64,000 nt of DNA, taken from contig CM000434.1 in NCBI GenBank assembly GCA_000165345.1, forward strand, positions 96,001 through 160,000, in the 5' to 3' direction. The notes beneath the pieces were generated by a model. That model had not been told where the DNA came from and made no database searches. It was given only the letters and a program-made list of their open reading frames with translations. Both the position numbers and the translations under genes were made by a program. Positions 2,692 through 59,225 of this stretch are shown piece after piece (the stretch's first letter is position 1; each line of letters starts with the position of its first letter).

Positions 2692-2700
2692 ATACCGGTG
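2692..2700. promoter_or_regulatory. ATACCGGTG copy of recurrent ACCGGT palindromic promoter motif
   Basis: One of about 10 intergenic copies of (T)ATACCGGTAT(A). Flanked by atgtggaca (2633-2641) and tacatgcaatttt (2703-2715). Confidence 0.3.
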
Positions 2701-2751
2701 TTTACATGCAATTTTATAGTCAGTTTTGCCATACCGGTCTGAAATAATGAT

Positions 2752-2790
2752 TGAGGGGGTGGGGGGTAGGAAGGGTTGGAAGTTCATTTT
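2752..2790. promoter_or_regulatory. G-rich tract (gagggggtggggggtaggaagggttggaag) in divergent intergenic region; potential G-quadruplex or GC-box element
   Basis: Runs of G5, G6, G3 and G2 within 39 nt in an otherwise ~85% AT intergenic region. Flanked by ACCGGT palindromes at 2692-2700 and 2731-2740. Confidence 0.3.
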
Positions 2791-3349
2791 ATTTTTTTTG
2801 CATGCAAGTATAGATTGGAATTAATGATTTTATTATTAATGTTATTATTTTAGATATTTTTAAGTATTTCTATTTCAACATTTTTATAGTTTATTTTTTA
2901 ATTTGATATGATTAGTTATAATAATTAGGATATTAATTATAAATATATATAATATATTTTTTTTTTATTTAATTACAATAATTTTTCTTCCTTTCCAATT
3001 GTTTAATTTTCATTTTTTCTAAACCCTCACTACCTTAATGTCAAATCATTACCTATTTAATTATTCAGTTATTAATCAATTAAAGCATGCACATTTGGGC
3101 GCCATAATTTGTTAGTAATTTGTTTAACGCAATAAACACCGGTATATATAAATTATACGTAATATGTATATTTAATGTAAATTAAAAAAAATATATGTTA
3201 CATAGTCATGTAAATGCTGTTTTTTTTAATAAAAGTTATCAAGGGTGGTACATTTATGATCCAATTAAAAATACAATTATTTACATTTATATGTTGTTTT
3301 AATATTATTATTAATTAATTTATTCATATTAAGCCATTTAGTAATAATA

Positions 3350-3928
3350 ATGAAAAGAAAGAATATATTATTTAACTTGATAATTTTCTGTTTTTCAATA
3401 ATGCAAGTTATTCTTGGAAAAAAAGTAAATATTTTAATAGACGATATGGGAACTATTCATAAAGAAACTTTGTTAGATATGAACAATAAAAATATTAATA
3501 CTGATACAAATATTAATAATAATGGTAATAGTATTAGTAATTGGAAAGGAAGTTTAATGGATTTAAAAGATCCATTAAATAGTTCAGAAAATAATAGAAA
3601 ACTTGATCAAGACAATAGTATTATATGTGAATGTAAAATAATGGTAAGTAAATGTAAATATTCAATATTAATTAAATTAACTTAATTAAAATCTAATATA
3701 TATATTCTATAGAATAAATGTATTCCATATAAAGATTGTTATGGATTAGCATGGATTACTACAACTTTAATGTTAATAATAATAATAATAATAGGATATA
3801 CTGTTCAGTATTTATCATTAGTCCCACATGAATATCTTTCAGAAAGAAATAATTCGAGAGAAAATAAATTTTGTGGAATAGTATTAACAAATTATGAACT
3901 TGTTGAGCCTGTACATCCAAATAATTAA
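3350..3928 (+). CDS. two-exon gene for a small signal-peptide plus single-TM protein (about 169 aa): join(3350..3643,3713..3928)
   Basis: Exon 1 ORF ends ...CECKIM and is immediately followed by GTAAGT at 3644. A 69-nt AT-rich intron ends in tatag at 3708-3712. Exon 2 continues in phase 0 as NKCIPYKDCYGLAWITTTLMLIIIIIGYTVQYLSLV... to TAA at 3926-3928. Signal peptide MKRKNILFNLIIFCFSIMQVILG. Confidence 0.45.
3644..3712 (+). other. intron (GTAAGT...AG, 69 nt)
   Basis: Canonical dictyostelid donor GTAAGT immediately after the ATG codon at 3641-3643. Acceptor AG at 3711-3712 restores a long ORF in phase 0. Confidence 0.45.
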
Positions 3929-5704: not shown

Positions 5705-7758
5705 TTATTTATTAATTGATAGTGAATTAATGATTTCATCCAGTTTAATATGGAAATTTCTTGCTGATTTAATAGTCTCTAATATAGGTAAACATATACT
5801 TCTTATAGTATTTGAAGATTGTCCAAATGTACTTAATGAAGATGCTGAGATATTTTTATTATCATGCACAAGTAATTCAATATTATGAGTAATTTTATTT
5901 AATGATTCAATAGTTTTTCTTCTTTCATCATTATCTTTTGGAGATAATGATAATCCCCAAAAGTACTTTAATAATTCAATAGCTTGTATATGTTCTTGTT
6001 GTATTTGTTGCATCCAAATAGGCTTTTCTTCTTTAATTTGATCGATATTATTATCAGATTGATTATTTTGTAATTCAAAAAGAATTTGATTTTTAGAATC
6101 AATTTCATTACTTTTTTTTTGTATTAAATTATTTTTATTAAACAATCCAAGTTGATTAATTTGTTCATGTTGTATTTGTTTTGTACAGTTTAATAATACA
6201 TTCCTGGAAATTGGATTATTAAATAAAGAATCATGGTCATTCTTATTATTTTTATTTGTTTTATTAAAATTGAATTTAACTCTTCGAGTATTATTATTAT
6301 TATTATCTTCTTCTTCTTTTTTCATATTAACATCTAATTTATTTCTGGATGATGAGAAAAAATTAACAGGATTAATATCCAAAAGTTGACTATTACTATT
6401 TGCATTGCTTGGATGTTGTTTAGTTTGTAAATAATTTTGTGAATATTCAAAATCCAATTCATTTTGTCTATTAAATACTGCATTATTACCAGAATTCGTA
6501 AATTCAAGAATTTTAGCTCCATGACAATTAAATCTTTCAAAGAATCCTGTATTAATATTTGCACTTTTTTCAGATGCAATATTTAAATCATTATCAATTA
6601 ATGTACCATATCCTATTTTTTTATAAGTATCATTATTTAATAGATTGATTTCAGAACTAACATAATTTCCAAGTAATTCACTTATTCCATTTGTTTGGTT
6701 ACCATTATTATCATTATTATTACTACTACTATTAAGTGTATTCAACTCATATAATAATTCTTCTCCTTTAGGAATCTCACCAATCATTAATGTATCACTA
6801 TTATTAGGTACCGTAGTTCCGTGCCCAAGTATATCAAAAAATAATGGTGATTGTATAATACGATTCCAAAATTCTTCTTCTGTCAAACGATGTGGAACGT
6901 ATTTCTTTAATTTTTGTTTTAATTGATGGCATTTCTTCAAGAATTGACTTTAAATCATCGGCAGTAATTGTTACATCAATACCTCCAGAATTTGTGATAC
7001 TAACTTTTGGTGGCCTTTTCAAAAAAAAATCAGAATTTTCAACTCCTTTTTCTTGTGTTTTTGATAAAAGTATATCTTGATGATGCATTTGAATAAAAGA
7101 TTCTAAAGACATACTTCCTGTAAGCACTAAACTCTTATAAATTTGATCCAATTCAGGCTTATATCGTAATAATTGATTCAAATCATCGTATATAGAGTGA
7201 CTTTCCTTTTGGCTTAACTTTTTTTTCAATGACTATTCTTTTATTGACATTTTTCTCAACTTTATTAAATTCTAATATTTTATTTTCAATTGAATTAGAG
7301 TTTTCAGATTGTTTTTTTTCTTTAAGCTCTNGAAGTTTTNTATATCTTTCAATAGCTTTACTATGGCAATCTGATATTAATTGTAAAAAATTGTTAAAAT
7401 CATCATTTGAATTTAATGTAAGATTGATATCGATAAATAAGTTAGAATTAACTTTGTCTTTAATCTCTTTATTTTCAAATCTTAATCCAACAAGACGTTT
7501 ATCGTCTCTTTTTCTATGTGCATATAGATTCTGCCATAATTCTACAACAAAATCATTTGCCAAATTTAAATTATTTTTACTTGAACTAACTTCATCATTA
7601 TAATTTAAATTATTATCAGTTTCTGAAATAATTTTNGAATAACTTTCTTTTAAAATACTAATACTTTCGAATGGTTGACCTTTAACCTTATCAGAAATCC
7701 ATATTATATTATTTCTCGTAACATATAAAATACCTGGATTCTTTTTTAAATATAACAT
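5705..7758 (-). CDS. gtf2h1: general transcription factor TFIIH subunit p62 (Tfb1/GTF2H1) homolog; reading frame broken twice (near 7222-7229 and near 6880-6940) and contains N bases
   Basis: N-terminal PH-like domain GILYVTRNNIIWISDKVKGQPFESISILKES (cf human [30 protein letters not shown]). BSD1 PELDQIYKSLVLTGSMSLESFIQ (cf [22 protein letters not shown]). BSD2 YVPHRLTEEEFWNRIIQSPLFFD (cf [21 protein letters not shown]). The three minus-strand ORFs 7183-7758, 6834-7229 and 5705-6940 are collinear with p62. Confidence 0.75.
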
Positions 7759-7902
7759 TTAAAAATTTTGATAAAATATCATCTTCTTTTAAAGGAATAT
7801 TCTAATTTTTCCATGAAATTAAAAATAATAAAAGAAGAAATTTATATTGTGTGTATTCAGTAATTTATTATTATTATTAATTTTATGTGGATTTTTTTTT
7901 TG

Positions 7903-7914
7903 TATACCGGTATA
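7903..7914. promoter_or_regulatory. TATACCGGTATA 12-bp perfect palindrome upstream of TFIIH p62
   Basis: Read directly. Recurrent motif class. Confidence 0.3.
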
Positions 7915-7940
7915 GAGTTTTATTAGCATTAAAATTTGAC

Positions 7941-7955
7941 ACGTAATAATTACGT
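7941..7955. promoter_or_regulatory. perfect 15-bp palindrome acgtaataattacgt upstream of TFIIH p62 start
   Basis: Self-complementary sequence about 185 bp upstream of the p62 ATG (7758, minus strand). Adjacent to tataccggtata at 7903-7914. Confidence 0.25.
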
Positions 7956-8152
7956 CATAATTTTTTTTTAAGACCGGCAATTGCATTTAAATAAAAAAAT
8001 TAATAGTAAACTATCGTATATCGNANTCNCTACCAAACAAAAAAAAAAAAATTATAGAATGAAATAACCAATTAAATAAAAGAATTTAAATTAATTATAT
8101 ATTACAATAATAATTTTTAAAAGAAAAATTTAAGAACAAATTTCCAAATTTT

Positions 8153-9744
8153 TTATTTGCTCTTCTTTTCCAGTAAAGATTCTGATGAGTTCAAATCTTG
8201 AACTTTCCATTCATTTGAATTAAAGTTTTCAATTCTGCGAATCATTGATGGGAAAATAAATAAAGTTGCAATCACACCAAAAATAAAACAAAATAAATAT
8301 TGTATAAAGAAAGAGTCAACTTTGCATGGATTTCCAATTAATAAAAGAAAATAATTGGAAAATTTGCTGTAATCAATTGGATTTTCATTTAATTCACAGT
8401 ATTTATAGTTTGTATAATCCAAAAGCCATAAACTAAGACTTTTTGGCCATTTATATCCTNAATTCGTTTANTAGNATCTCGAGNTNAGGCTAGATGTANG
8501 TTCCAGCAANTCTGTANANCAGAAATTAAATTAAAAAGAGTCATAAATATAAGTGATTGTGAATCACATAAAATTGATGAACAAATTGAAAGAGCCAAAT
8601 AAGTATAGTAAAACAAATTTGGTGTATCTGCAACTTCTTCTGTGTTTATCCATGGCTTATATATTATTCTAGACCATATTAATAACAAACAAAAAAATAA
8701 TGACAGTATTAATTTTAATGGTAATATTATAGTTAGAAATTTAAGTGGGGATTTTCCTTTGTAAACAAATTTAGTCATAATAAACGGAGTAATAAAACTG
8801 AATGGAATCAAGATTGGTCCAATAAGCATAATTTCACTCTTTTTCATACCAAATTCCATTAATTTAAATTCCAAAGATGAATCTGTTATTGCTGATGGTA
8901 TCCTAATAATAAAGAGCAAAATTATTAGTGAAATAACTGGTTTTAATGTTAAAATTTTATATAGAAGAGAATAAGCTTCTTTAATAGTAAGCTCAGCTTC
9001 TTGATCCTCTTGAGCAGCATCATCATCTTTTTTATTATCTATTACGTTTGTGTAAGAGTTATCTTCTTTTTTAAGTATTCCAGTAATTATAGTAACCAAT
9101 AATATAACTACACCCCAGAAATAGATAAATTGACTCATTTTACAAATTGGCTTGTCAACAATTTCTAATCCAAGTAAAGGACGAACATATTTATTACATA
9201 CTTTTGGATCATTTAAGAATAAAAATCCCAAATAAGACGTAATGTGTCCAAAAGATTGACCAATTATATTACAAGTTGATGCTAAACTTTTATGCTGAGG
9301 AGAAAGTAAATTTACTGCCCAAGCATCAACTGCAATATCTTGAGTAGCCATTAAAAAGTATAATGTTGAAAAATATATTGTTAATAAAGTAACGTTTGGT
9401 GATAATTTCTCCGTTAAATTTGATATACCTACTTCCTCACATAACCAAGTTGGAAGAAATGGGCTATAACTACCAATAATCATCAAAATACTACACACAA
9501 GTTGAGTTGGAATAATCCATGTTTTTCTTCTTCCCATCTTTTCTATATAAACTGAATCTACCAAAGGAGCCCAAAGTAATTTAAGTGAGAAAGGAAGTAC
9601 AACCATTCCAAACATACTCTGTTCTGTATATGATATTTTACCTTGTAAAAGAAATGGAATGGAATAACTAATGCCCATAGGAAGACCTTGAATTGTATAT
9701 AATATTAAAAGATAAAAAATATTTAAACATTCCAGAAGATCCAT
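8153..9744 (-). CDS. acetyl-coenzyme A transporter 1 (SLC33A1/AT-1 family, MFS) homolog; frame ambiguous across N run 8458-8520
   Basis: YTIQGLPMGISYSIPFLLQGKISYTEQSMFGMVVLPFSLKLLWAPLVDSVYIEKMGRRKTWIIPTQ aligns almost residue-for-residue with human SLC33A1 (YVLQGIPLGLAGSIPLILQSKNVSYTDQAFFSFVFWPFSLKLLWAPLVDAVYVKNFGRRKSWLVPTQ). C-terminal ORF 8153-8422 matches the SLC33A1 C-terminus (FFIQYLFCFIFG... cf YYVESIICVFIGFGWW). Confidence 0.8.
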
Positions 9745-10403: not shown

Positions 10404-11630
10404 ATGTACAGAGAACAGTTTCAGATTTTGGAGGATCTTTTGAAAAATTCACAAACACAGCAAATATGGTCAATTTATAGTTTATGTAATCATAATTCAA
10501 AATTTGAGAATTTTGAAATTTGTAAAGATATTCTGAAGTTATTTGTAAAGTATATTTCAGAAGAGAAAAAAGATTTTGAAGGAGTAGAATTAGTATATTT
10601 GGTAATGGGAGATATTTCATCAAATGAAGTTGCATACAAATTGGTTTATGATTCAGATTTATCTTTAAATGAATTTGAAGTTTGTAAATCGAATATATAT
10701 GGATTGGCATCAAGAAAAAATAATGAGAATTCTCAAGAAAATATTAATTTGAAATCTAACTCATTGCAATTTCATATAGAATGTGATGATATATATAAGT
10801 CCATTAAAGCAAAGAATTCATTATCTGAAGAGTTATGGAATTCAAAATTTTCAAATATAGCTAACACAAAATCAAATTTGTCAAGAGAATCAAGTAATGT
10901 TAATTCTGTAAATTTAGACCAATCTGAAATAAAATCTAAGACTGAACCATATCCTATATTATTTAGTAGTAATAAAGATATAAATCAAAATAATAAGATA
11001 AATATTAACGAAAATGAAAATGAACAAGAAGATCAATGGAAAAAGAATGGTTATCTTAAGGAAAATGAAAATAATACTGATCCTTATCCTATGAAGAATG
11101 TGTTTGATAATGAAAAAAAAGTTATTTTATCAGAATCAAATAATAAAAAAGATTCTGATACTAGTATGAATGATAATATAACTAATTTATTTAAAGATGA
11201 AGAAAATGAAAATACAAATAGTATTGATGAATTTGTTCAAAATGAAGACGGTAAGTGTAAACCAACAAAAAGAAGAAAAACAAGTAAATCTAAAATATGT
11301 AATGATAATAATGATAATGAAAACAAGATAGATTTTGATCCATTGGAAGTTGAACCAATTATGCATAGTAAAGTAAAGAAAGAGAAAATGTATAAGGATG
11401 CTAAGACAGGTTATTTGGTTGTTGAAGATGATGTAGATTTTGTGATGGAAAAGGAAAATAGAATCACAAAATCAAGAGAAAAAGTTTCTCAAGAAAGCGA
11501 AATTCCATCAAAGAGATCAAACAAAACAAAAAAATCTCAAACTTCCAATATTAATTCTGGTACGAGTAAACAACAAACATTAAATTCTTTCTTTAAAATA
11601 GTAAAATCAACAAACAAAAATACTTTATAA
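10404..11630 (+). CDS. Lys/acidic-rich nuclear protein with C-terminal PIP box; tentatively DNA polymerase delta subunit 3 (POLD3/Cdc27/Pol32)-like
   Basis: C-terminal QQTLNSFF (11571-11594) fits the PCNA-interacting Q-x-x-L-x-x-F-F consensus. Basic NLS-like PTKRRKTSKSK. N-terminal ~70 aa (QILEDLL...IWSIYSL...KLFVKYI...VELVYLVMGDI) resembles the POLD3 N-terminal domain pattern. The rest is low complexity. Confidence 0.35.
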   Translation: MYREQFQILEDLLKNSQTQQIWSIYSLCNHNSKFENFEICKDILKLFVKYISEEKKDFEGVELVYLVMGDISSNEVAYKLVYDSDLSLNEFEVCKSNIYGLASRKNNENSQENINLKSNSLQFHIECDDIYKSIKAKNSLSEELWNSKFSNIANTKSNLSRESSNVNSVNLDQSEIKSKTEPYPILFSSNKDINQNNKININENENEQEDQWKKNGYLKENENNTDPYPMKNVFDNEKKVILSESNNKKDSDTSMNDNITNLFKDEENENTNSIDEFVQNEDGKCKPTKRRKTSKSKICNDNNDNENKIDFDPLEVEPIMHSKVKKEKMYKDAKTGYLVVEDDVDFVMEKENRITKSREKVSQESEIPSKRSNKTKKSQTSNINSGTSKQQTLNSFFKIVKSTNKNTL

Positions 11631-11856
11631 AAAAAAATGTTAAATATATATATATATATATTTATATAATATTAATCAGAATATCAAAATCATTAATATA
11701 TTTAAAGTATAATGATTATGAATTCGAGAAAAAAAAACGAGAAGATTTTCAGTATATTTCATTTTATTATGTATTTCACTTGATTCCTTTTTTTTTTAAG
11801 TATAATTATTTTATCTTAATATTCCTTCAATAAGCATTTGGAGCAATTTCACAATA

Positions 11857-13170
<1,314 letters not shown>

Positions 13171-14031
13171 TTTACTTGGAATTTTTCTTTTATTATTGCT
13201 ATTTTAAAGTAATGGCGTATTTTTATGTTAAAAAAAAATAAAAAAGAAAGGTTTGGGTTAATAAATGTATTTATTAAATTATATTTGATTTCAAGTATTA
13301 ATATAAAAATTGGTTTGTTAATAATTCTTGGAAATGTATTAAGCTGAAGTGATTGACTTTATTTATATTAAACTTGTAGAAAGTCAGCTGTTCTAATTCT
13401 CACATTACTATCTCGAATAAAGAATTGAAAATTTATTGATTTTGATAATAAAAAAATAATTACAATAATAAATAATAAATTCTGTTAAAATTATTTATTA
13501 TCTTAAATCTTCTTTCTTAATTATAATCCTACAGTCCATAAAAAAAAAAAAAGGAAATAATCTTAATTTAGAGGCTAGTAATATATATGAAGTATTTGGA
13601 CATTGGCGCCAAAATTGCTTTTGATACTTTCGAGACATTTATTAAAATATTAAAGTATAAATTTAAAAAATTACGATAAATTGTTAGTAAATATAATTAT
13701 AAAGCATGATTTTAAAATTTAGATGTTTTTTTCTCAAATATAATGAAAGAAAAATCTTAAATTATAATTCATGAACAAATATGTAGTTACAAAGTCACTT
13801 ATTATACAATTTTATCTAGATTTATTAAAAAAATAAAATAAAAAAAGAATAAAATCTATCAAAAAAATGAGAATTTGTTTAATTATTTCAATTACTATAG
13901 TTATATAGAACTTTTTCACAATTTAAATTAATATGCATTAGTTTTTTATTCATAAAATATATTAATTGTATTATTATCATTTTTGATTATTAAATACGAA
14001 TTTTTGTTAATATTACGTAATTATTTAATAT

Positions 14032-14041
14032 TACCGGTATA
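14032..14041. promoter_or_regulatory. TACCGGTATA motif with downstream tgtccaca (14093-14100) and tgcatgcattacatgcaaa (14106-14124) in ZIP/PDE divergent intergenic region
   Basis: Read directly. Same three-part arrangement as at 2633-2810, 32933-33020, 44331-44433 and 54624-54680. Confidence 0.3.
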
Positions 14042-14392
14042 GGGAAAACTTGCTACCATCATATTTATACACGTAATCAAATATATATTTTCTGTCCACA
14101 TCACTGCATGCATTACATGCAAATAATTTAAAAGTGAATAGCAAAAATGAATGATTTTGTTTGATTTAAAAATAAAACAAAATAAACTAAATTAAAATTC
14201 AAGAATTAATAATTCAAGATGACAATACTAAAATAAAATTTTAATATTACTTATTGCATTCATCAAAAGATCAATGCGGCATGAAATACTAAAATAAAAG
14301 TTTAGTTAAGAAATGGGAAAAATAATTTAATTTTTGCCAGATTTATATTTTAAAGAAAAAAAAAAATCATTAAACTAAATTTAAATAAATAA

Positions 14393-14427
<35 letters not shown>

Positions 14428-14572
14428 ATGTAATAATATTAATAATTATTTAATTATTAATAAAAAGATGAAGGCGCTTCATAATTTCATATCAATATAA
14501 AGCAACTATTTAAGCGCGGAAGTTCCAAATACTAATAATGGGGAATTTACAAGAGAATTGTGAGTAGACTTG

Positions 14573-14598
14573 AAAAAAAAAAAAAAAAAAAAAAAAAA
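14573..14598. repeat. poly(A) homopolymer (about 26 nt) in intergenic region
   Basis: aaaaaaaaaaaaaaaaaaaaaaaaag read directly. Confidence 0.9.
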
Positions 14599-15022
14599 AG
14601 CATGCAAAAGTGAATAGCATTGTGGGTAGAAATCAAAGATTCAAATTTCTTTTTTTTTTCTTTAATACAATAAAGAAGAAAACAAATTATATGGATAATA
14701 GTTCTTCTCTTTTTTAAATGTGTAATATATAGTAACAATTAAAGAAAAAAGGATTGTCATGAAAACTAATTTTGATAAAATTTATTTTTAAAGGCCAGAT
14801 TTTTATGGGAAGCAATTTTATTAAACAAAAAAAAAAAAATATATATATATATATATTATGTATGTATATATATATATATATACGTAATTAATAAGTTAAA
14901 ATAATCTTATGTAATAAAATAGAAAGGAAAGAAATATTGAAATTATTTTTTTTTTTTCTCTGAAGACAAATTCAGACATTAAATTAAAAAGATATTTTAT
15001 ATAAATTAATGGTAAATATTGT

Positions 15023-20959
<5,937 letters not shown>

Positions 20960-20984
20960 TTTTTAGAGTTGAAATATTTATTAT

Positions 20985-21360
20985 TTGTTTTTTATTTTCC
21001 TCTTCCTCCTTTACCTTCCTCTTCTCTTTCCTATTTCTCTTCTTTTTTTTTCTACTTCTCTTTTTTTTTCTACTTTTCTTTTTTTCCTCTGTTTCTTATC
21101 TCTCCTCCCTTTTCCTATTTCTCCTCTTTTTTTCCTCTGTTTCCTATCTCTCCTCCCTTTTCCTACTTCTCTTTTTTTCCTCTGTTTCCTATCTCTCCTC
21201 CCTTTTTCTATTCCTCCTCTCTTTTTCCCCTCTCTTTTCCTATTTCTCTTCTTTTTTTTCTTTATTTCCTTTTTCCCCTCTCTCTTTCCTCTCTTTCTCC
21301 TCCCTTTTCCTTTTTTTCATATTTCTCCTCCATTTGCCTCTTTTTCCCCTCTCTATATCA
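20985..21360. repeat. polypyrimidine CT-rich tandem repeat (about 48-bp unit cctctgtttcctatctctcctcccttttcctatttctcctcttttttt, about 4 copies plus degenerate flanks) between convergent genes
   Basis: Direct repetition visible at 21091-21240. Strand-asymmetric C+T composition over about 375 nt. The ORFs predicted inside it (20969-21401) are low-complexity artefacts. Confidence 0.8.
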
Positions 21361-21366
21361 AGTTGC

Positions 21367-22044: not shown

Positions 22045-22133
22045 CTTTTTCTATTATTTTTATTATTAATATTATTGTTATTATATTATTGTTGTTATTA
22101 TTAATATTAAATCTTTTTTAATTATTATTAGTA

Positions 22134-22186
<53 letters not shown>

Positions 22187-44227: not shown

Positions 44228-44362
44228 GTTATTTAAAATTAGCTTAAATTTTAAGAAACTTCTTCTTTACTAGATTTATTATATTTTTTTAATTAATTAA
44301 GTTAAATTATATACGTGTCATTGTTTTTTTTTGTCCACATAAAATATATTGACTCAAACTTG

Positions 44363-44373
44363 TATACCGGTAT
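44363..44373. promoter_or_regulatory. TATACCGGTAT motif upstream of gene 44537, flanked by tgtccacat (44332-44340), gcatgcatt (44376-44384) and tgtccac (44427-44433)
   Basis: Read directly. Confidence 0.3.
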
Positions 44374-44536
44374 TTGCATGCATTATTGCGCAATTACCGA
44401 ATGCAATTTTTTTGAAATTAATTTCTTGTCCACTTAACGCGGACGATAATAAAAATAATTATATAAAAAAAGTCAAAAAGTAAAATAAAATTTATTAAAT
44501 TAAAAAAATAATAAATTTATGTATAAGATATAATTA

Positions 44537-47500: not shown

Positions 47501-48264
47501 TTAATTCAGTAAATAATGATCAATTAAAGGAAATGGTTGATTATAATATTGGTAAGATTGATGATGAATGTTTAAATATGAAAAATTTAAAGAAGATTTC
47601 AGAAATTAATATCAAAAGTTTAATCAAATCATTAGAATCATTCTTTTTTAAAAATGCACCTTCAAATATTGATCATTCATTTAATATTGAAATTATGAAT
47701 GATCATAATTATTTGAAAAATGAAAGAAAATCTATAAAAATTTTATATTCTTGGTGTGAGACTTTTGAACATATTAAAGAAGAATATGAATCTGAATCAA
47801 AAGAAAAATACAGGGAAATTAATCTTAATTNTAACAATAATAACAATAATAATAATAATATTAATGTTAATCATAATGGTATTGATAATATTGATACCAA
47901 TAATTTTGAACCTATTAATTGGTTTGTAATATACTATGATTCTATATGGCATTCTCTTTTACCATTAAAATTTTCAATTGGGTGGTTAACTTGTCCATCA
48001 ATTCTAATTTCAAGAATTGTAAGAAAACTTAAATCAATTCTACTCAATTATAACTTTACATTAATGCAATTAAGATCATCTGATGTCTATTCATCATATG
48101 AAATTTTTCCAGACAACTCAATCTTATCATCATATACTCCATTAAATCCACCATATCTTATCAAATTCAAAAAATCTATTTCAAATAACACTTTGAAATT
48201 ATTACTTAAAAAATTTATATCTTTTCCACTTTCTTTACAACTTATATATTTNGNNCAAAGGTAA
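44537..48264 (+). CDS. large (about 1190 aa) protein of unknown function, two exons: join(44537..44625,44700..48264); contains N-derived X residues and ends next to an N-rich low-quality block
   Basis: Exon 1 ATG at 44537 (MKENNDIFKGKNIDGKILVPLSFHNSKKS) ends ...agcag followed by GTAAGT at 44626. A 74-nt AT-rich intron ends tttttag at 44699. Exon 2 continues in frame (phase 2) into the long ORF listed as 44788-48264, whose listed Met is actually an in-frame TTG Leu. No recognisable catalytic motif. Confidence 0.5.
44626..44699 (+). other. intron (GTAAGT...TTTTTAG, 74 nt)
   Basis: Canonical donor and polypyrimidine-AG acceptor. Splicing joins two in-frame coding segments. Confidence 0.5.
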
Positions 48265-49520
48265 TTCTATTTCAAGATTTTTTTCTTGNGGAATNCTCAT
48301 AGTATATATTCATTGGAATTAAATCAAAATGCTATATTGGTAAGAATTTAATTATTATCAATATTTTGGAAAAATCCATTTTCAATATGATTCATTTTCC
48401 TATACTTAAATGTCCTTGGTTCAAGTTCAATGTTTGATCCAAGTTGGAGAAATNATATATTTCATTTTCATTTNAAACATATCAAAATAATTGTCAAAAA
48501 CATGCATATTNACCGGTNAAATNACAATTACATGCAATTTTGGTTAAATGAAAGCCCGCCNTGTCTTGAAAAATATNACTATAGAATTAAATACAAAAAG
48601 GCAAAAATNNNCACAAAAAAAAAAAANGTTNTAATTAANGNAAAAATTTTGAATTTTGGTGATTTTTTTTGTGTGGAGATGGTAAAAAANAGTGAAAAAT
48701 ACGTTGATTAACTTTGATTAATGTAGAAAANAANTAGTGACACTTGGTAGCTTGGAAAGCATTAAATTAAAGCTTGGTAAGAATTNTTTNTGAGAAAATT
48801 AATGGAATTNAACAANGAAAATTTAATTTANAACTAANAGTCATTTTTGAATCANAAGATGATANAATATTNAAACTTATCACTGATTATATTCATTTAA
48901 TGAATAGAAGAGTATGTGGTNGAAATCAAAATAATAATGATACTAATTCTCTGNATATTATGTGATNCAATAATTCAAGAATGTGAAACAAAGAATGGTA
49001 AGAAGAAATTTACTGTATTATTATCAAAAAGTGAAGATTTGGAAATTATTTCAAATGAAATGGATTCACAAAATAATCAAGATACTGGTCTATTATATTA
49101 ATTGGAAAATAAGAGATAGAACAAAANCACTATGAATTAGTGGGATTATTATCTCAATCAATTATTTCTGAGTTTATTTTTCCAAACTCTATTCTACAAT
49201 ATTCAAATTCTAGATTATTTTTAACTTTATTATCATCCAATAATCAAGAATTAATATGGAGTTCTAATACTTTCTTAATGAATAATTTTATTAAATACAA
49301 GACAATTGATGAAGTAGAAAATAATCAAATAAATGATGATAATACAATGATATATTTAACTACTTTACAAAGTAATAATGGTAATAGTAATGGAAACCTT
49401 TTTATGTTTACAATGAATCAAAAAATAGAATAATCAATAAAAACCAAGTTAAGTTTTGAAGGTATTAAAAAATATAAAATTAAAGAGATTATTGAAAGAA
49501 GTATTAGATTACATAGATTA

Positions 49521-50318
49521 TTGGCTAAATATAGAAATCATTTGGAAAATTACCATTCTCTTAAATTAAAATGTGCTCATCAAAATAAATGGATTACTAA
49601 TGATAATAACAGTAATAATCAACCATTTCAATCCATTTTTCATTTTAATAATAATCAAATTAATAAAAATGAATCACAATTATTAAATAATAATGATCTA
49701 GATATTATTAATTTAAAGAAAAAACAAGAAAAAGAAAAAATTGATAATTATATTAAAGAATTTGAAAGTAAACATAATGAATTAATTGAATTAATTAATC
49801 AAAATAAAATGGATATTGAAAAAAATACTTATAATATTATTGAATTAAATAAAGAAATTAATATATATAGAAATGATTTAATAAATAAAATTTCATATTG
49901 TATATATCCAATTTCTATTGAAAAGAAAACTTCAAATTTCAAAATTAGAAATATGTTACTTCCATTAATTAATGTAATACAAAATTTGGATAATAAACAA
50001 GATTTGGAAATATCAACAACATTAGGATTTTCATTACATTATTTACAATTAATTTATAATATATTGGAATTACCTTGTTCAAATAATATTATTGTAAAAG
50101 GATCATTTTCTACTATTAATAATAATCCATTATATTCTTATCCTAATATGAATAAAAAACAAATTACTAAAGCATTAAAATTATATAAATCAATAATTTA
50201 TAATATACTCAATTATTTTAATGTTAATCATGCTAATTCAAAAAAGATATTATTTACAAATAATATATTACTTATGCTTTTAACAGTTACAAGTTATATG
50301 AAAAATTACCAAAACTAA
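49521..50318 (+). CDS. hypothetical Asn-rich coiled-coil protein (C-terminal 265 aa; probably the 3' part of a gene starting in the N-rich block 48770-49433)
   Basis: Uninterrupted ORF with heptad-like NELIELINQNKMDIEKNTYNIIELNKEINIYRNDLINK. Upstream ORFs 48774-49433 on the same strand carry many N-derived X residues, so the 5' structure cannot be resolved. Confidence 0.3.
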   Translation: MAKYRNHLENYHSLKLKCAHQNKWITNDNNSNNQPFQSIFHFNNNQINKNESQLLNNNDLDIINLKKKQEKEKIDNYIKEFESKHNELIELINQNKMDIEKNTYNIIELNKEINIYRNDLINKISYCIYPISIEKKTSNFKIRNMLLPLINVIQNLDNKQDLEISTTLGFSLHYLQLIYNILELPCSNNIIVKGSFSTINNNPLYSYPNMNKKQITKALKLYKSIIYNILNYFNVNHANSKKILFTNNILLMLLTVTSYMKNYQN

Positions 50319-52321: not shown

Positions 52322-52563
52322 TTTTCTATTGCTTCTTTTCTTCTTTAATTACATATATAAATATTTTCTTTTAAATTAAAAAAAAAAAAAAAAAGATCAA
52401 CTTTTTAAATACAATATAATATATTGGTTTTGTTATAAGTAATAATTTACATTTTATTAATATTTTAAATGAATTATTTCTTGAATATTATAATATCTCG
52501 ACATATAATACATGTTTTAATATTTTTTTAATTTCCAAAAAAAATATTTTTTTTTTAAATAAA

Positions 52564-52584
52564 ATACGGTACCCGGTACCGTAT
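52564..52584. promoter_or_regulatory. 21-bp near-perfect palindrome atacggtacccggtaccgtat (two GGTACC cores) about 245 bp upstream of ATP synthase alpha start
   Basis: Read directly. Only the central base breaks the dyad symmetry. Followed by GC-rich gcccgcatgacacgcac. Confidence 0.35.
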
Positions 52585-52808
52585 TAATTAATAAATATGC
52601 CCGCATGACACGCACAATTTATATCTTGAGAAGAAATTTTTAATTTTAAGATTAAAAGCAAATGAGGTTTAAATAATAAAAAATAATGATAATAATAATA
52701 ATTATACTACTAACAATAAATAAATTTGACGTTATAATTAATTAAATGAAAATCGATAGACAAAATCTTGATAATTATTTGAATGGTAAATTTTATAAAT
52801 AATATAAA

Positions 52809-53834
52809 TTAAGATGATCCTTTCTGCTCTTCCTGATGAATTTTTTCAAAGTAAGGATGAGCCAAAGCTTCTCTTGGAAGAATTCTCTCAGCATGATCAT
52901 AAACTAGCATTTTATCAAGTAAATCTAAAACAACAGGATTAACAAGATGTTGATTTTCAGCATTGATAAATTTGCTCCATGGTTTTCTAGTATGTCTGCC
53001 AAGTAAATCATCAAAATAAGGTTCCAATTGTTTTTTATATTTAGCAAGATATTCAAATAAACCATCAGTACCTAAAACCCTAGCAATTTTAACAAGTTGA
53101 TCATTGTTATCAACTCCACAAAAGAATGGGTCCCTCTTAAAAATTAATCCAGCTAAAACGCATCCTAAACTCCAGATATCCAAAGAGTAATCATAATATT
53201 GAAAATCAATAAGTAATTCTGGTCCTTTATAGTATCTGCTAGCAACTCTTACGTTATAATCTTGTCTAGGATGATAAAATTCTGCTAAACCCCAATCAAT
53301 TAATCTTAATTCTTTCTTTTTTGGATCAATAATTACATTATGTGGTTTAACATCACGGTGCATAATACCTTGTGAATGACAAAAATCTAATGCTTTTAGA
53401 ATTTGATATATATAAAATCTTATATCATTATCATTAAATGTTGGAAATAAGCTTTTAAAATCAACATTATCAAGGCATTCAAATACAAGACTTATTGTAC
53501 CACTGCTTGGATCTTTTATTATGTCCAACAATTTTACAATATTTGGACCACCATGTAAATTATATAATATTTTTATTTCACGCTTAATTTTCTTTCTTTT
53601 AACCGGTCTAAGTACTTTAATTATTACCTTCTCATTTGTAATCACATTAATTCCTTCAAATACTTCACTGTATTTTCCTCTACCTACTTTTTTAATTATT
53701 TCATAGTTATTTGGGTTACTATATTCAATTTGAAAGCTTTCATAATCCCAATATTCACGAGGTTTATATATATTAACATCTGAATATAATCTTGGAAGTG
53801 GCCATTTATTAGCTGAATTACTATTGTTACTCAT
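52809..53834 (-). CDS. casK: casein kinase II (CK2) catalytic alpha subunit
   Basis: [82 protein letters not shown]...[33 protein letters not shown]...[16 protein letters not shown] is about 75% identical to human CSNK2A1, including the [12 protein letters not shown] basic cluster and the DWG variant of DFG. Confidence 0.92.
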
Positions 53835-54630
53835 TTTTTTCTTTAATTATTAAACTTTTTTTAATGATTAAAAAAAAAATAATAATAAAATATTTTCTTC
53901 AAATATTATATCTTTCTCTTGATGCTTCAAAAACCTGAGAGTTTACTTGGCTTTCAACTCCTTGCATTTACTAGAGTAGATCTCTTTTCTCACTCTATTT
54001 TCCTATTAACAATTTTCAATTAAAATTCCAGATTCTAAATTAATTTTCTTCCTTCTCTTTTATTCTTTATTTTAATTTATCAATTCTGATAAATATCAAG
54101 TCTCATCATTTGGCGCCAAATCAACGGCGGGTTTCAAATAATTAAAAAAAATTTAATTGTTGACTTTTATTATTAATGTTAAATGGATTAATTATTATTT
54201 TTTTTTTTATTAATGAAAAAAATCTACATTCTTATTATTCATATATAGCTACTTTTAAATTGTTGAATTAATTAATTTTATCATTTTATTATTGCATTCA
54301 ATTTCTTAATGTATTATTACCAATAAATTACTCAAATTAATATTAACATTAATTTTCTCTTTCCTTTATTAATAGATATTGGATAGTAATAATAAGAATT
54401 ATTGTTTATTATTACTATTATTCATGATATTAGAAATTAAAATGTAAATATATAGATATATACATGGAAAAATGCCAAATTATATCGCCATAATTTGCAG
54501 TTTATATTTACAATATTATATTAAATTTAATGCTATACTATTTTTTTTAGGACTAATTTAGATGTAACATTTTAATGCATGTAATTATTTCTTGTGTGCA
54601 AATATTAAAATTAGTAATTTTTATGTGGAC

Positions 54631-54640
54631 ATACCGGTAT
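54631..54640. promoter_or_regulatory. ATACCGGTAT motif directly abutting atgtggac (54624-54631) in casK / SFT2 divergent intergenic region
   Basis: Read directly. Confidence 0.3.
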
Positions 54641-55373
54641 ATAAAAATAAAAATTGCATTACGTGTAAAGTGCATGTAGATAAGTTCAAAAATAATAAAA
54701 AAGGGGGGAGAAAATAATTTTCATAAGAATAATTTTATAATAATGAAATTCTTTATTAAACAGGAGCATTAAAAAAATCTTCTATTCTTTTTTAAGTAAA
54801 ATCAGAATATATTATAAAAATAAAATCAGTCATTGTTAAGAAATAAAGAATTTTATATTTTTGTGTGGTAATATTAATTAAGAATATTTAAAGCAAATCA
54901 ATCATTTTCAGAGAAACAAATTAACAATTTTTACATTTTAATTATAAGCTAAATCAATTTAAATTTGTAATAATATATATATTGAAAATTAATATTAATA
55001 TTAAAAAATATATATATATATTATTAGATGATTATTGCGAATCAATATTTTAAAAAAAAAAAATTAATATTACACAAAACGGCGGGCAAATTATTTGATT
55101 TATTGCAAGCGGGTGACATTAAATTATTTAAGAAGAAAAAAATAATTAAAAGTATTTAAGCCGAACAACAAATAAGTGTAAGAAAAAAAATCTTATTATT
55201 AGATTTTTGGAAGTATAAATACATAAATAAAAGCATATTTTCATAAATTCATTCATTCAAATTCATTATCAACTATATTAAGAATTTCTAAGCTTTATTT
55301 GAAAATATATTGGGTAGTAATATTTGCAAAAATCACAAGGTTAAAATAGAATTGTAGAAAGAATCAACTAAAA

Positions 55374-55910: not shown

Positions 55911-55936
55911 ATTTAACAAAATTAACAATAATATAT

Positions 55937-58681
55937 TTATTCATAACTATTAAAGCTAGAAGATGTATCAGAAGAGTAAGAAGAATCTGATGAATTGTTG
56001 ATATATATACTGGAAAGTGATATGAATCCTGGCTCATGATGCAATAGTGGGGATTTTCCATTGTTATTGTTTTTTATTAAATTTTCATTACCACAATAAC
56101 TAATACTATTGCTACTACAACTGTTGTTGTTATAATTATTATCGTCATTTTTTTTATCATCTGAATTAGTAACAATAAAAGTTTCATTTGATTCAGTTGC
56201 TGAAATATATATTGACTCAAATGTTGAGCAATTCGAATTCTTTAATGAACTTTTCAAATCAGAATCAGATTCAGATTCAGATTCAGAAATTCCATTTTTT
56301 TCAAAATCATCATTAATATCATGATTATTATTATTTCCAGTATATTTAATATTCATTAATTCATCATTTCCATTCAAGTCTTTCAAGTTTATTAATTCTG
56401 GAAGCCAAATATTGCATTTATTAATATTTGGTCTTCCAATTATGGAAAAATTATATTTCTCAACTATATCGTTCGAGTCAATACTTCTATTATTTGAAAT
56501 TAAATCATTAATTGACTTTACTTGATCAAAATATTCATTAATCCAATTCTGGATCTCTTTAATAACGTCTTTAAAAAGATTTGGATCGCCTTCTTGAGAT
56601 TTTATATCATTACCTAATTTGTATAATATATTATAAATTGGATATTTACAAGCTTGATTATTTTTTGACAATGTTAAAATAATCATTTTTATGGATATTT
56701 CTTTATTATTAATATTAATAATAACTTTCTGTTCAGATTTATCTCTTAATATTTTAATGGCTCTTCTATATTCTTTTCTATGAATCAGAATATTAATCAA
56801 GATCTTGATATTATTCATTCTATGAGCAGTATCCATACAAATTTGTTCCAACCAAGATATATTCTTTAATTTGAAATATTTTGAAGCTTGATTAATACCA
56901 TTTTCATCCAAAACTTTGCTATTAAATCTAACATGTCCTTCTTGGTTTGTTTTGGTTGATGGTAATTCATCTTTATTTCTATTAAATAAGTATAATTTAT
57001 AAAGCTCCCTCAAGATCTTATTAGAATCTTCAAATATATGGTATTGCAATACGTATTGTAAAAGTGATTCTCTTTTTGTATGAAAAATTAATATAAGAAG
57101 AATATTATAATATTCTTGGTTGATTTTCAATTTCATATCAACTTTAATTTTAATTATTTCCATCAATATTGTAAAGACTTTTGGACAAGGTTTCGCTGAA
57201 ATATCATTACTATCATTATCATTATCATTATTGTTAATTTCTTGATTAACAAGTGATTTTAACTTTTCTAAAAGTATACTATCCCATAAAATATTTCTAT
57301 TGGAAATAAATGGCAATATATCCATCTTTTCAATACTTAATATGTTTTCAATTAATAATTCGTCGCAAAAATTCAGTCTTGAATATTGAATCTTGTTAAT
57401 ATCCAACTTTATTACTATATTACAAGATGAATTAACAAGAAGTATATGATAATTGTTCAAATGTTGGTTTTTTATCTTTTTTAAAGATTTCATATACATA
57501 TCATTTTTATTATTATCATATAAACAAATTATTGTATTATCATTCAATTCATCATTAAATAATGTTGGTACCATATAAAAATGACCTATATTATTATCAG
57601 TTTCAAGTTTTTTATCTTGGTCAGAATTTGAATTAATACTTTTTGAAAAATTCTTGTTATTATTTTTAACAAGTTTAATATCAAAAAGACCAAATACTTT
57701 TTTTCCATGAAGATTTATTACGACAATTACGTTATCAATAACCAGTAATGTAAATTCTTGAAAATCTTCTCCAATATCTAAAACAAGATCAGAAGATTCA
57801 TGATTAAATAAATCTCTAAGTGATATTCTTTTATTGCTAGAATCAACATGAACACAATAAAGATTTTGATAAATATTTAAGAGAAATATATCTTGTTGTC
57901 TAATTTCAGCATTTAAAATAAGTTCTAAAGGTTGAAGTTTAATAGGTTTTTGTTGTTGATTCATACCAATATTAATATAAGGTGTGAGTATATTTGATCC
58001 AGTTTGTAATAAAATTGACTGAAATTCCATATTATACCAAAATTGAAGATTATTTTCATGAATTTGCCATATTGGATGAATACCATGTTCTTTTAAAGAA
58101 AATAATATTAATTTAGAATTGGTAATCATTAGAATTGAAGGATAATATTGTTCATTACATATTGAAGATGATTGATTTGATGAATCTTCCCACCATATAA
58201 CTCCTCTTAGAATTTGATTATTTTCTATATGGATTTTAGTCTCAATATAATCCACTTCATTCCATTTATAATTATTATCAATTTGTTTTTCCAGATTAAT
58301 TTTCCTAAGTACTAATAATTTGTGATTGCTTCTAGTATTTTTAACATTATCATCTTGTTGAATATATGCTAAAAATACAATATAATTATTTGTTTCTTCT
58401 CTTGTATTTATATACATGATAAGATGTGAAGGCTTGCATGAGAATTCTAATTCATATAATTTAGGTAGTTGATATTCAAACATTTCATTGGAATTAATTC
58501 TTAATAAACTATTATTTAATTTATTATATATAAGTGTATCTCCTTCATTTGTTGAATTAAAATAAATAAATTGTGATTCAATTAGTAAATCTTGATTAAT
58601 ATCAAGTTTTTCTTCTTTTTCAAACTTGTTTAACTCATCTTGATTAATTTGCAAATATCCAAATTTCGATACTTTATCCAT
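55937..58681 (-). CDS. RMC1/Mic1 (regulator of MON1-CCZ1, C18orf8-like) homolog with Asn/Ser-rich C-terminal tail
   Basis: NVIVVINLHGKKVFGLFDIKL matches human RMC1 NLVVVHHQDTETSVIFDIKL. VLQYHIFEDSNKILRELYKLY matches FLQYHVLSDSKPLACLLLSL. KVFTILMEIIKIKVD matches HKFVIAVLMEYIRSLN. Overall predicted beta-propeller-like N-terminus plus alpha-helical C-terminus. Confidence 0.5.
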   Translation of the reverse strand: MDKVSKFGYLQINQDELNKFEKEEKLDINQDLLIESQFIYFNSTNEGDTLIYNKLNNSLLRINSNEMFEYQLPKLYELEFSCKPSHLIMYINTREETNNYIVFLAYIQQDDNVKNTRSNHKLLVLRKINLEKQIDNNYKWNEVDYIETKIHIENNQILRGVIWWEDSSNQSSSICNEQYYPSILMITNSKLILFSLKEHGIHPIWQIHENNLQFWYNMEFQSILLQTGSNILTPYINIGMNQQQKPIKLQPLELILNAEIRQQDIFLLNIYQNLYCVHVDSSNKRISLRDLFNHESSDLVLDIGEDFQEFTLLVIDNVIVVINLHGKKVFGLFDIKLVKNNNKNFSKSINSNSDQDKKLETDNNIGHFYMVPTLFNDELNDNTIICLYDNNKNDMYMKSLKKIKNQHLNNYHILLVNSSCNIVIKLDINKIQYSRLNFCDELLIENILSIEKMDILPFISNRNILWDSILLEKLKSLVNQEINNNDNDNDSNDISAKPCPKVFTILMEIIKIKVDMKLKINQEYYNILLILIFHTKRESLLQYVLQYHIFEDSNKILRELYKLYLFNRNKDELPSTKTNQEGHVRFNSKVLDENGINQASKYFKLKNISWLEQICMDTAHRMNNIKILINILIHRKEYRRAIKILRDKSEQKVIININNKEISIKMIILTLSKNNQACKYPIYNILYKLGNDIKSQEGDPNLFKDVIKEIQNWINEYFDQVKSINDLISNNRSIDSNDIVEKYNFSIIGRPNINKCNIWLPELINLKDLNGNDELMNIKYTGNNNNHDINDDFEKNGISESESESDSDLKSSLKNSNCSTFESIYISATESNETFIVTNSDDKKNDDNNYNNNSCSSNSISYCGNENLIKNNNNGKSPLLHHEPGFISLSSIYINNSSDSSYSSDTSSSFNSYE

Positions 58682-59214
58682 TTTCTTCTATTTTTCTCTG
58701 GTTATTTAATTTGATAGTTATTATTTTTTTCAGTATAAATGGATAGAGTGTGTCAATTCAATATATTGATACTTGTTTCTTTCTTTATTATTAATCCCAA
58801 TTATTTTTTTTTAATTATTTAAATCTTAACATAATTAATTTTCAATATTCATTAATCTTACACATTTATTATTACATACATATTTTAATATTGTTGTATT
58901 TCCCGCCAAAATAACTCCTTTTTTTCTTCCTTTTCTTCCCATAATTTTATTTATATCATCCCCTCTTTTTTCTTTTATTTTTCTTCCTTATTTTTCTTTT
59001 TATTCTTTTTTTCTTCTTCTTCTTAATTGTAATATATAATTTACATGTTACTATTTAAATTTATTTATATATTTGTAAAAACAAACAATCAAAAAGAAAT
59101 AACGATATTTACTTGGATTTGTTTGTTTGATTTGTGTGTCATGTGCGCCCTTTAAGTAATCCTTGACCACATGCTCTTTTATTTTGCATTCCGAAGCAAT
59201 TACCGCGCGCGGGA

Positions 59215-59225
59215 ATACCGGTACC
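59215..59225. promoter_or_regulatory. ATACCGGTACC (ACCGGT overlapping GGTACC) preceded by cgcgcgcggg, upstream of RMC1-like gene
   Basis: Read directly. A GC-rich 25-nt island in AT-rich DNA. Confidence 0.3.

Follow-up and report, generated by a model that had tools for sequence, protein, structure and literature searches.

In a 64-kb window of Cryptosporidium parvum chromosome 6, by which we mean the whole stretch of DNA analysed here, the palindromic hexamer ACCGGT recurs in the spacers between genes as the core of a 10-bp consensus, ATACCGGTAT, and stands beside a small set of other short words. Copies of the palindrome are named after this consensus and called P sites; P sites together with their neighbouring words are called modules. 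The palindrome is enriched, shows restriction to non-coding DNA, co-clusters specifically with certain words, lacks repeat-like flanks and is under purifying selection in orthologous spacers. On these grounds, ATACCGGTAT is best read as the putative binding site of a transcription factor, probably a dimer, that would act within composite promoter modules set apart from E2F promoters, and we give this reading a probability of roughly 0.7. The sample consisted of the window and an additional 8.6 kb of C. parvum sequence to its left.

The initial annotation had reckoned that ACCGGT should occur only once or twice in this DNA, which it took to be about 80% AT, close to the computed composition (76.6% A+T and 23.4% G+C, the latter lower than the roughly 30% of the C. 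parvum genome). It had counted about 10 intergenic and 2 coding copies, and these counts were borne out, with its coordinates correct to within 1–3 nt. The hexamer occurs 12 times (2694, 2733, 3138, 7906, 14033, 33000, 36058, 44366, 48512, 53602, 54633, and 59217), against 0.86 expected and a maximum of 3 in 100 dinucleotide shuffles. Ten of the 12 copies fall in DNA outside open reading frames (ORFs), which makes up 26.1% of this gene-dense window of long unbroken ORFs, and the proposed comparison of intergenic with coding DNA, run at window scale, gave an intergenic excess (Fisher p = 5.6e-5). Measured against an order-2 Markov model of intergenic DNA, these ten copies compare with 0.80 expected (p = 1.5e-8), and the ACCGGT context accounts for 10 of the 13 intergenic occurrences of CCGG. 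The exact 10-mer ATACCGGTAT is present four times (7904, 32998, 44364, and 54631) versus 0.03 expected, while each of the remaining six intergenic copies departs from it at one outer position. The claim that nearly all copies are the extended palindrome thus holds in the sense that all ten fit (A)(T)ACCGGT(A)(T), but not for the exact 10-mer. In the symmetrised flanks, A occupies position −2 in 80% of cases and T position −1 in about 80%, and the information ends at 10 bp. The additional 8.6 kb contains one more copy, TATACCGGTATT, which is also intergenic. The two coding copies are probably incidental: ATACCGGTCC (36056–36065) encodes D-T-G-P of a conserved motif in alanyl-tRNA synthetase, and TAACCGGTCT (53600–53609), in casein kinase 2 alpha, is without the AT...AT flanks.

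An unbiased scan of all 6-, 7-, and 8-mers of intergenic DNA against the order-2 Markov model placed ACCGGTAT first among the 8-mers once A/T low-complexity words were set aside (13 strand counts versus 0.30 expected, p = 2e-17), followed by GCATGCAA, TACCGGTA, ATGTGGAC, and TGTGGACA; it outranked the known AP2 word GCATGCA. The 6- and 7-mers also yielded the known E2F words (GGCGCC, GGCGGG, and TGGCGCC), G-runs, ACGTAAT, and GGTACC(G). Since the scan retrieves known C. parvum words, the method evidently finds published motifs, and the palindrome is stronger in the window than any of them. Chance or a base-composition artefact, in favour of which only the small sample size can be cited, is practically negligible as an explanation, given the Markov probabilities of the hexamer and the 8-mer, the failure of all 100 shuffles to reach 12 copies, and the repetition of the excess in the C. 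ubiquitum and C. meleagridis loci.

The companion words listed by the initial annotation were confirmed at their places, save that the copy at 44427 proved to be a variant, TGTCCACT. TGTGGAC or its complement GTCCACA occurs at 2634, 14094, 32934, 44333, and 54624 (n = 5), GCATGC at 2800, 3085, 14106, 32956, and 44376, and TACATGCAA at 2703, 14114, and 48529. The zone within 100 bp of an intergenic ACCGGT covers 11% of the intergenic bases, but it contains five of the five TGTGGAC words (p = 1.6e-5), 10 of 13 CATGCA clusters (p = 5e-8), and six of seven ACGTAAT clusters (p = 1e-5), whereas control words showed no association with it (GGCGCC 1/5, GGCGGG 1/7, GGCGGT 1/4, and GGTACC 1/7). A local G+C island was considered as the cause of the co-clustering and rejected, because local G+C is just slightly raised (0.19–0.31 within ±100 bp versus 0.16–0.22 in the flanks) and because E2F words do not co-cluster. 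The ten P sites group into eight modules of ~50–180 bp. Two arrangements recur, ACCGGT-NN-TT(A/G)CATGCA at 2694 and 44366 and ATGTGGAC adjoining the palindrome at 54623–54640, and, taken together, the words look more like loosely clustered factor sites than like a single rigid element. The composite cis-regulatory module suggested at the outset is therefore supported, both by this selective clustering and by a layout that is kept in C. meleagridis and C. ubiquitum.

The same annotation had raised the possibility of a dispersed short element, and a short GC-containing palindrome with recurring neighbour words might indeed be what is left of a repeat or mobile element. The flanks, however, share no extended similarity. 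In an all-against-all BLAST of the ±150-bp flanks, only motif words and A/T-rich low-complexity matches were found, the best non-self match having an E-value of ~1e-4 over 28–30 nt of A/T runs, and a repeat finder returned only AAT/ATT, GAA, and CT low-complexity families. The order, spacing, and orientation of the words vary from site to site, and the orthologous positions are kept across species. We rejected the repeat, which we hold to be extremely unlikely.

Each spacer that holds one or more of the ten intergenic copies contains at least one promoter, four of these spacers being divergent and four tandem. No copy lies in a 3′–3′ spacer, but such spacers total ~2.6 kb, too little DNA for a test. 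Across C. parvum, C. meleagridis, C. ubiquitum, C. felis, and C. muris, most copies stand 90–270 bp before an annotated ATG. For the BSD-domain gene, the distance is 97 bp in C. parvum, 88 bp in C. ubiquitum, and 99 bp in C. felis; for the gene of 377 residues, it is 182 and 221 bp from the annotated ATG in C. parvum, 203 bp in C. ubiquitum, and 133 bp in C. muris; for IML1, it is 163–168 bp in C. meleagridis and C. ubiquitum and 145 bp in C. felis; and for the ATP synthase subunit, it is 242–257 bp in C. ubiquitum and C. meleagridis. The initial annotation had also suggested a shared core-promoter element. A general element of this kind, through which the basal machinery and not a gene-specific factor would set where transcription starts, could explain occurrence at many unrelated promoters, and palindromy would suit bidirectional promoters, with four of the eight modules in divergent spacers. 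Yet the palindrome is present in only 8 of ~15 promoter-containing spacers, about half, and the ~7 others carry E2F-like or GGTACC-type words; its distance from the ATG ranges from ~90 to more than 1,000 bp (~1,020 bp at most); it keeps no fixed order relative to its companions; and it shows no enrichment in C. bovis or C. muris, where a basal element would be expected as well. We do not favour this explanation and regard it as distinctly unlikely.

Position also bears on whether the palindrome acts at the RNA level, as an element of the untranslated regions (UTRs) of flanking transcripts such as a translational control or stability signal. The copies at 44366, 48512, and 59217 lie 85–250 bp past a stop codon and could be in a 3′ UTR, and those 90–270 bp before an ATG could be in a 5′ UTR; the mid-spacer copies of the 1.5–1.9-kb divergent spacers, however, are unlikely to be in either mRNA. 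Perfect palindromy at the DNA level and freely oriented neighbours are typical of sites read in double-stranded DNA, a palindrome of 10 nt cannot fold back on itself, and the partner GCATGCA is a proven DNA-binding site (PMC3734150). An RNA-level role is thus very unlikely. RNA genes were also looked for in the window, and neither Rfam (gathering threshold) nor a tRNA search gave a match. Somewhat easier to entertain than an RNA-level role, but still quite unlikely, is a protein-bound palindrome with a non-transcriptional chromosomal role as an origin, a chromatin boundary, or a nucleosome-phasing site, which would co-locate with promoter words merely because both occupy the short, nucleosome-free spacers found in a compact genome. 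In favour of such a role are the strand symmetry of the motif, its mid-spacer position in long divergent regions (14033 and 54633), and the lack of an obvious common function among the adjacent genes. On the other hand, the association is specific to TGTGGAC, CATGCA, and ACGTAAT and does not extend to the E2F words that are also in spacers, most copies are 90–270 bp before a start codon, and a density of about one per 6 kb exceeds what is expected for origins or boundaries.

The initial annotation had assumed a dictyostelid source for this DNA. That assumption was wrong: the locus is on a C. parvum chromosome, and the ORF at 35506–38481 encodes an alanyl-tRNA synthetase that agrees in all of its 991 residues (100% identity) with C. 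parvum QOY40933 and others, and that is found on the 1.31-Mb C. parvum record CP029785.1. The proposed check of conservation in orthologous promoters was run in Cryptosporidium relatives instead. Both anchor genes, the acetyl-CoA transporter and casein kinase 2 alpha, lie in regions whose synteny is kept throughout the genus. The motif, the word order, and the spacing are preserved in the orthologous spacers of C. meleagridis and C. ubiquitum. In C. meleagridis, the sites orthologous to 44366, 48512, and 54633 are intact, and those at 33000 and 59217 are one-base variants; in C. ubiquitum, 2694, 3138, 7906, 44366, and 54633 are intact, and half-sites remain at 2733 and 14033. Compared with C. 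ubiquitum, identity is 52% over the spacers as a whole versus 79% in the P 10-mers, 93% in TGTGGAC, and 83% in CATGCA, and the survival of five of nine hexamers has p = 3e-7, or 2e-3 at a conservative local identity of 0.70. In the spacer at 7759–8388, the block TGACGTAAT-ATTACGTGTCA ... CTATACCGGTATA ... TCCACATAA aligns between C. parvum and C. ubiquitum, and its palindrome is also present in C. felis.

Global spacer alignments with C. felis, C. bovis, and C. muris were near random (36–42% identity) and uninformative, and alignment-free word maps were used for these species. The composite ACCGG(T/C)-NN-TNNCATGNA, in its fuller form (T)ATACCGG(T/C)-NN-T(T/C)NCATG(C/T)A, is present in five species, 127–197 bp from the start of the ortholog of the 377-residue gene. 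C. parvum, C. ubiquitum, C. felis, and C. bovis share one orientation, whereas C. muris, which branches deepest among the species sampled, has the composite inverted. In C. ubiquitum (6 versus ~0.6 expected) and C. meleagridis (6 versus ~0.8), ACCGGT is likewise in excess, and every copy is intergenic. The word looks old, yet the lineage of C. parvum and C. ubiquitum would have multiplied it or preserved it better, with individual sites turning over.

Several points weigh against a transcription-factor site. This function is deduced from sequence statistics and conservation, and a single chromosome was sampled, so genome-wide behaviour is an extrapolation. The exact hexamer shows no excess in C. 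felis (4 versus 3.2 expected), C. bovis (4 versus 1.9, three of the four copies being coding), or C. muris (1 versus 0.6), and the C. parvum sites 14033, 48512, and 59217 are not intact in C. ubiquitum; the lost sites and the absence of enrichment in some species imply either high turnover or a factor that tolerates variants. Three modules are mid-spacer, 540–1,020 bp from the closest ATGs, among them 14033 (863 and 1,023 bp from the flanking ATGs) and 54633 (799 and 741 bp), and the order and orientation of the words differ from module to module. Finally, the palindrome is missing from the results of published cluster-based motif searches in C. parvum, a sign, perhaps, that it does not follow expression clusters.

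If ATACCGGTAT is a transcription-factor site, a sequence-specific Cryptosporidium DNA-binding protein, most likely a homodimer, would recognise it. The two 5-bp half-sites, ATACC|GGTAT, adjoin each other in perfect two-fold symmetry, which suggests binding by a dimer, with a presumed effect on transcription. The palindrome would be one component of promoter modules that also contain the ApiAP2 word (T)GCATGCA or TACATGCAA, the word (A)TGTGGAC(A), and the bZIP-like ACGTAAT or ATTACGTAAT. Placed upstream of one gene or between divergent genes, such modules would mark a promoter class apart from the E2F class that dominates C. parvum. Two promoter classes would fit the open chromatin of sporozoites, in which E2F motifs are enriched and AP2 motifs are lacking (bioRxiv 10.1101/2025.01.17.633476).

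Candidate factor families are bZIP proteins, a dimerising ApiAP2 domain, or one of ~16 Myb-domain proteins. The palindromic bZIP geometry of abutting 4–5-bp half-sites is seen in ATACC|GGTAT and again in the companion ATTAC|GTAAT at 14012–14021. The centre of the palindrome is CCGG and not a documented bZIP centre such as ACGT, which makes a bZIP less likely, but oomycete bZIPs do bind unusual palindromes (GTAATTAC, GTTCGAAC, and CATCGATG). Among 21 ApiAP2 domains tested, 15 gave motifs, 10 of which were TGCAT, CACACA, or G-box and the other five of which are published as figures, and six gave none. A 2025 review (PMC12246861) lists six upstream motif families, and most of the factors (Myb, bZIP, zinc-finger, and several AP2) are without a known site. 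An enriched and conserved palindrome beside GCATGCA and away from E2F words offers a concrete probe for finding a new factor, and would be a sequence marker for a non-E2F promoter class, possibly one that is closed in sporozoites. The compact conserved modules could also serve as stage-specific reporters or drivers where genetic tools are limited.

The individual sites differ in their surroundings. Module 1 (2625–2806) lies in the divergent spacer between the 377-residue gene (−) and a small gene (+), and consists of ATTACGT at 2625, TGTGGAC at 2634, P site ATACCGGTGT (2692–2701, 177 bp from the ATG of the 377-residue gene), TACATGCAA directly after it (2703–2711), a second P site, ATACCGGTCT (2731–2740), 39 bp from the first, a G-rich, G-box-like run (GAGGGGGTGGGGGGTAGGAAGGG, ~2761–2790), and TGCATGCA at 2799. 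The C. ubiquitum counterpart of the second P site is ATACCGGCCT, which is also followed by a G-rich run, GTGGGGGGAGGGGGGATAG. On the small-gene side of the same spacer is ACACCGGTAT (3136–3145), 258 bp from the small-gene ATG as annotated in CP029785, with GCATGCA at 3085, the E2F-like GGCGCC at 3098, and ACGTAAT at 3157; the orthologous place in C. ubiquitum has ATACCGGTAT and TACGTAA. Module 2 (7886–7956), upstream of the BSD-domain gene (−), contains TGTGGA at 7886, an exact P site (7904–7913) 97 bp from the annotated ATG, and an inverted pair, ACACGTAAT/ATTACGTCA (7939–7956), with ACGTAAT at 7941 and ATTACGT at 7949. Module 3 (14012–14122) is in the middle of the 1.9-kb divergent spacer between a ZIP transporter gene (−) and the phosphodiesterase gene cgd6_500 (+), and comprises ATTACGTAAT (14012–14021), P site TTACCGGTAT (14031–14040), ACACGTAAT at 14069, GTCCACA at 14094, TGCATGCA at 14105, and TACATGCAA at 14114; the CCGGTAT, TCCACA, and CATGCA words are kept in C. 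ubiquitum at similar spacing.

Module 4 (32934–33018) occupies the divergent spacer between a large kinase-like gene (−) and the TRIP13 AAA ATPase gene (+), with GTCCACA at 32934, TTACCGCC at 32945, TGCATGCA at 32955, CATGCA at 32964, an exact P site (32998–33007), and TGTGGA at 33013; C. meleagridis has the one-base variant ATGCCGGTAT with the same neighbours. In module 5 (44333–44434), upstream of IML1 (+) and 139 bp past the stop codon of a CPSF-like gene, an exact P site (44364–44373) is accompanied by GTCCACA at 44333, TGCATGCA at 44375, and the variant TGTCCAC at 44427. The block TATACCGGTATTTGCATGCA is identical here in C. meleagridis and C. ubiquitum, and C. felis has TACCGGTATATGCATG. 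The P site (T)NACCGGTN (48510–48519) lies in an N-rich stretch upstream of an ATG14-like gene (+), with CATGCA at 48501, TACATGCAA at 48529, and CCCGCC at 48555; its C. meleagridis counterpart, TTACCGGTAA, keeps these neighbours and is 186 bp before the called ATG, and the site is lost in C. ubiquitum. Module 7 (54576–54676) stands midway in the divergent 1.5-kb spacer that separates casein kinase 2 alpha (−) from Got1 (+). It consists of TGCATG at 54576, ATGTGGAC (54623–54630) abutting an exact P site (54631–54640), ATTACGTGT at 54658, and TGCATG at 54671, and ATGTGGACATACCGGTATAT...ATTACGTGT is kept in C. meleagridis and C. ubiquitum. The last P site, ATACCGGTAC (59215–59224), overlaps GGTACC, abuts the E2F-like CGCGCGCGGGAA, and is 536 bp upstream of a gene of 914 residues (−); in C. 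meleagridis, CGCGCGCGGGA and CCGGTACC are kept and the left half of the P site is lost.

Other words in the spacers form families of their own. The ACGTAAT words (7939–7956, 14012–14021, 14069–14077, 54658–54666, 2625, and 3157) are often bZIP-like palindromes (ATTACGTAAT and ACACGTAAT-AATTACGTCA) or ACACGTAA; nine of 15 copies are intergenic, almost all of these beside the ACCGGT palindrome, and the word was not found in the C. parvum motif lists examined. E2F-type words (3098, 13605, 22403–22421, 39670, 40272, 54112–54131, 55081, 58902, and 59205) are nearly all intergenic (GGCGCC 5/6, GGCGGG 7/7, and the variant TTGGCGGTAA 4/4). Their spacers, for example 22045–23686 and 39402–40636, are mostly without the palindrome, which suggests separate promoter classes. 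The word GGCGGTAA occurs at 10092, 32945, 39940, and 39961. A second GC-containing palindromic family, (A/C)GGTACC(G/T) and GGTATCG, has sites at 52560–52585, 35182, 39855, 61967–61978, 61999–62008, 62544, and 59220. GGTACC has eight intergenic copies versus 0.41 expected, yet eight coding copies as well. At 52560–52585 is the perfect 21-nt palindrome ATACGGTACCCGGTACCGTAT, with ACCGGTATCG in C. meleagridis and ACCGGTACCG in C. ubiquitum at the orthologous place. TACCGGTA and CGGTACCG may thus be two inverted arrangements of one half-site, CGGTA.

Among the genes of the window, the acetyl-CoA transporter (8389–9744) matches CPHLJ_6g470, and the phosphodiesterase at 15056–20959 is cgd6_500. Of the flanking genes, cgd6_430 belongs to expression cluster 55 and cgd6_500 to cluster 24. 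The coding regions are rich in AAT/ATT (poly-Asn), GAA/GAT, and TCT/TCA trinucleotide runs. A degenerate CT-rich polypyrimidine tandem tract of 380 bp (20981–21361) follows immediately on the stop codon of the phosphodiesterase; the repeat finder sees it as a family of ~14 overlapping copies, and it gives rise to spurious ORFs at 20969–21401. The window contains 69 N, concentrated at 47–49 kb (47000–49200) and 8 kb (8000–8100) with single N elsewhere, and these, together with probable frameshifts, break genes that the complete C. parvum assembly shows as one ORF each. The BSD-domain gene, 700 residues in CP029785, appears as three ORFs (5705–6940, 6834–7229, and 7183–7758), and the ATG14-like gene is broken around 48391–50318; the N and the split genes indicate that the window is an older, lower-quality sequence version. 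The series ATP-synthase, ATG14, IML1, CPSF is shared by C. parvum, C. meleagridis, C. ubiquitum, and C. felis, and by C. muris through IML1, where its locus ends. In C. bovis (11197–21074 of its locus), synteny breaks immediately downstream of casein kinase 2 alpha, and a gene of 260 residues, a kinase, ribophorin I, and TCP-1 replace the series.

The 2003 abstract of Bankier et al. reportedly named two abundant motifs only, later equated with TGCATGCA and E2F. The upstream motifs now listed for C. parvum are AP2_1 (TGCATGCA), E2F ([A/T][C/G]GCGC[G/C][A/T]), G-box, AP2_2, GAGA, and CAAT-box (text and supplementary tables of PMC3734150; Table 3 of PMC12246861). The palindrome is absent from the 25 motifs in 11 families given in the text and supplementary tables of Oberstaller 2013 (PMC3734150), where YTTACAT and ACATGY are among the fragments listed. 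An ACCGGT/CCGG motif was likewise not found in the main text of an AP2 binding study (PMC4117751), in the 2007 and 2010 motif papers (PMC1779779 and PMC2832001), in a study of long non-coding RNA promoters (PMC7840661), in a 2025 preprint using the assay for transposase-accessible chromatin with sequencing, ATAC-seq (bioRxiv 10.1101/2025.01.17.633476), or in Table 3 of the 2025 review (PMC12246861). Literature searches for ACCGGT with ApiAP2 or Cryptosporidium returned primers only, and the palindrome appears to be undescribed for Cryptosporidium in the literature examined. It resembles the known C. parvum motifs as a short, often palindromic GC-containing word confined to A/T-rich upstream spacers, and AP2_1 words physically adjoin ACCGGT sites; it differs in that its sequence fits none of them and has no tie to E2F words, containing neither a GCGC nor a GGCGGG core such as an E2F/DP site would have. 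The AP2_1 sequence (BGCATGCAH, with a TGCAT core) is matched by the companions TGCATGCA at 2799, 14105, 32955, and 44375 and TACATGCAA at 2703, 14114, and 48529, and not by the palindrome itself. GCATGCA is an ApiAP2 site, bound by the AP2 domains of cgd2_3490, cgd1_3520, cgd5_4250, and cgd8_3230 (text and tables of PMC3734150; main text of PMC4117751). Genes for class II oocyst-wall proteins are preceded by the motif A[T/A]G[T/A]GGA.A, and expression cluster 124 has TTGTATGTGGAAA (PMC3734150). Both include ATGTGGA, which matches the companion ATGTGGACA, and there too the word is found with AP2_1-like motifs. That likeness concerns the companion and not the palindrome, and was reported for a handful of genes.

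Outside the genus, Grainyhead/CP2 sites, AACCGGTT, contain the ACCGGT core, and to our knowledge such proteins have not been reported in Apicomplexa. The 8-mers bound on arrays by the Phytophthora infestans Myb protein PITG_08960, NACCGGTC, are a second example (PMC11267843, supplementary file 3). Both share the core with the palindrome, and known folds can therefore read ACCGGT, but the flanks differ: here, TACCGGTA is found in 15 of 18 readable symmetrised flanks. ACCGGTC, the core of the PITG_08960 type, is limited in the window to 2731 and the two coding copies, and seven of the ten intergenic sites read ACCGGTA.

An identical consensus is known from oomycetes. A promoter motif of Plasmopara halstedii, streme-5, is ATACCGGTAT (PMC10031896), and has been equated with motif-9 of Phytophthora, GTACCGGTA (Seidl 2012, PMC3520976); it is found at 206 genes in Plasmopara (PMC10031896) and 1,284 in Phytophthora (PMC3520976). 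Oomycetes are stramenopiles and Cryptosporidium is an alveolate, and the oomycete motif is tied to effector genes and infection-stage expression. A tentative and, in our judgement, unlikely extension would be a factor shared by alveolates and stramenopiles for ATACCGGTAT, and perhaps for TGTGG(A/T)C words, with TACCGGTA and CGGTACCG as alternative CGGTA dimers and a third promoter class as the outcome. If this were true, an ancient factor–motif pair would organise promoters in both Cryptosporidium and oomycetes, and Cryptosporidium would have a third major promoter class beside E2F and AP2. The 10-bp consensus is identical in the two groups, both motifs are inverted repeats abundant upstream of genes (10 of 10 intergenic copies in the window), and the Plasmopara list also includes TGTGGWCCACA, which resembles the companion TGTGGAC; this identity with an abundant oomycete motif raises the testable question of whether a factor–site pair has been deeply conserved.

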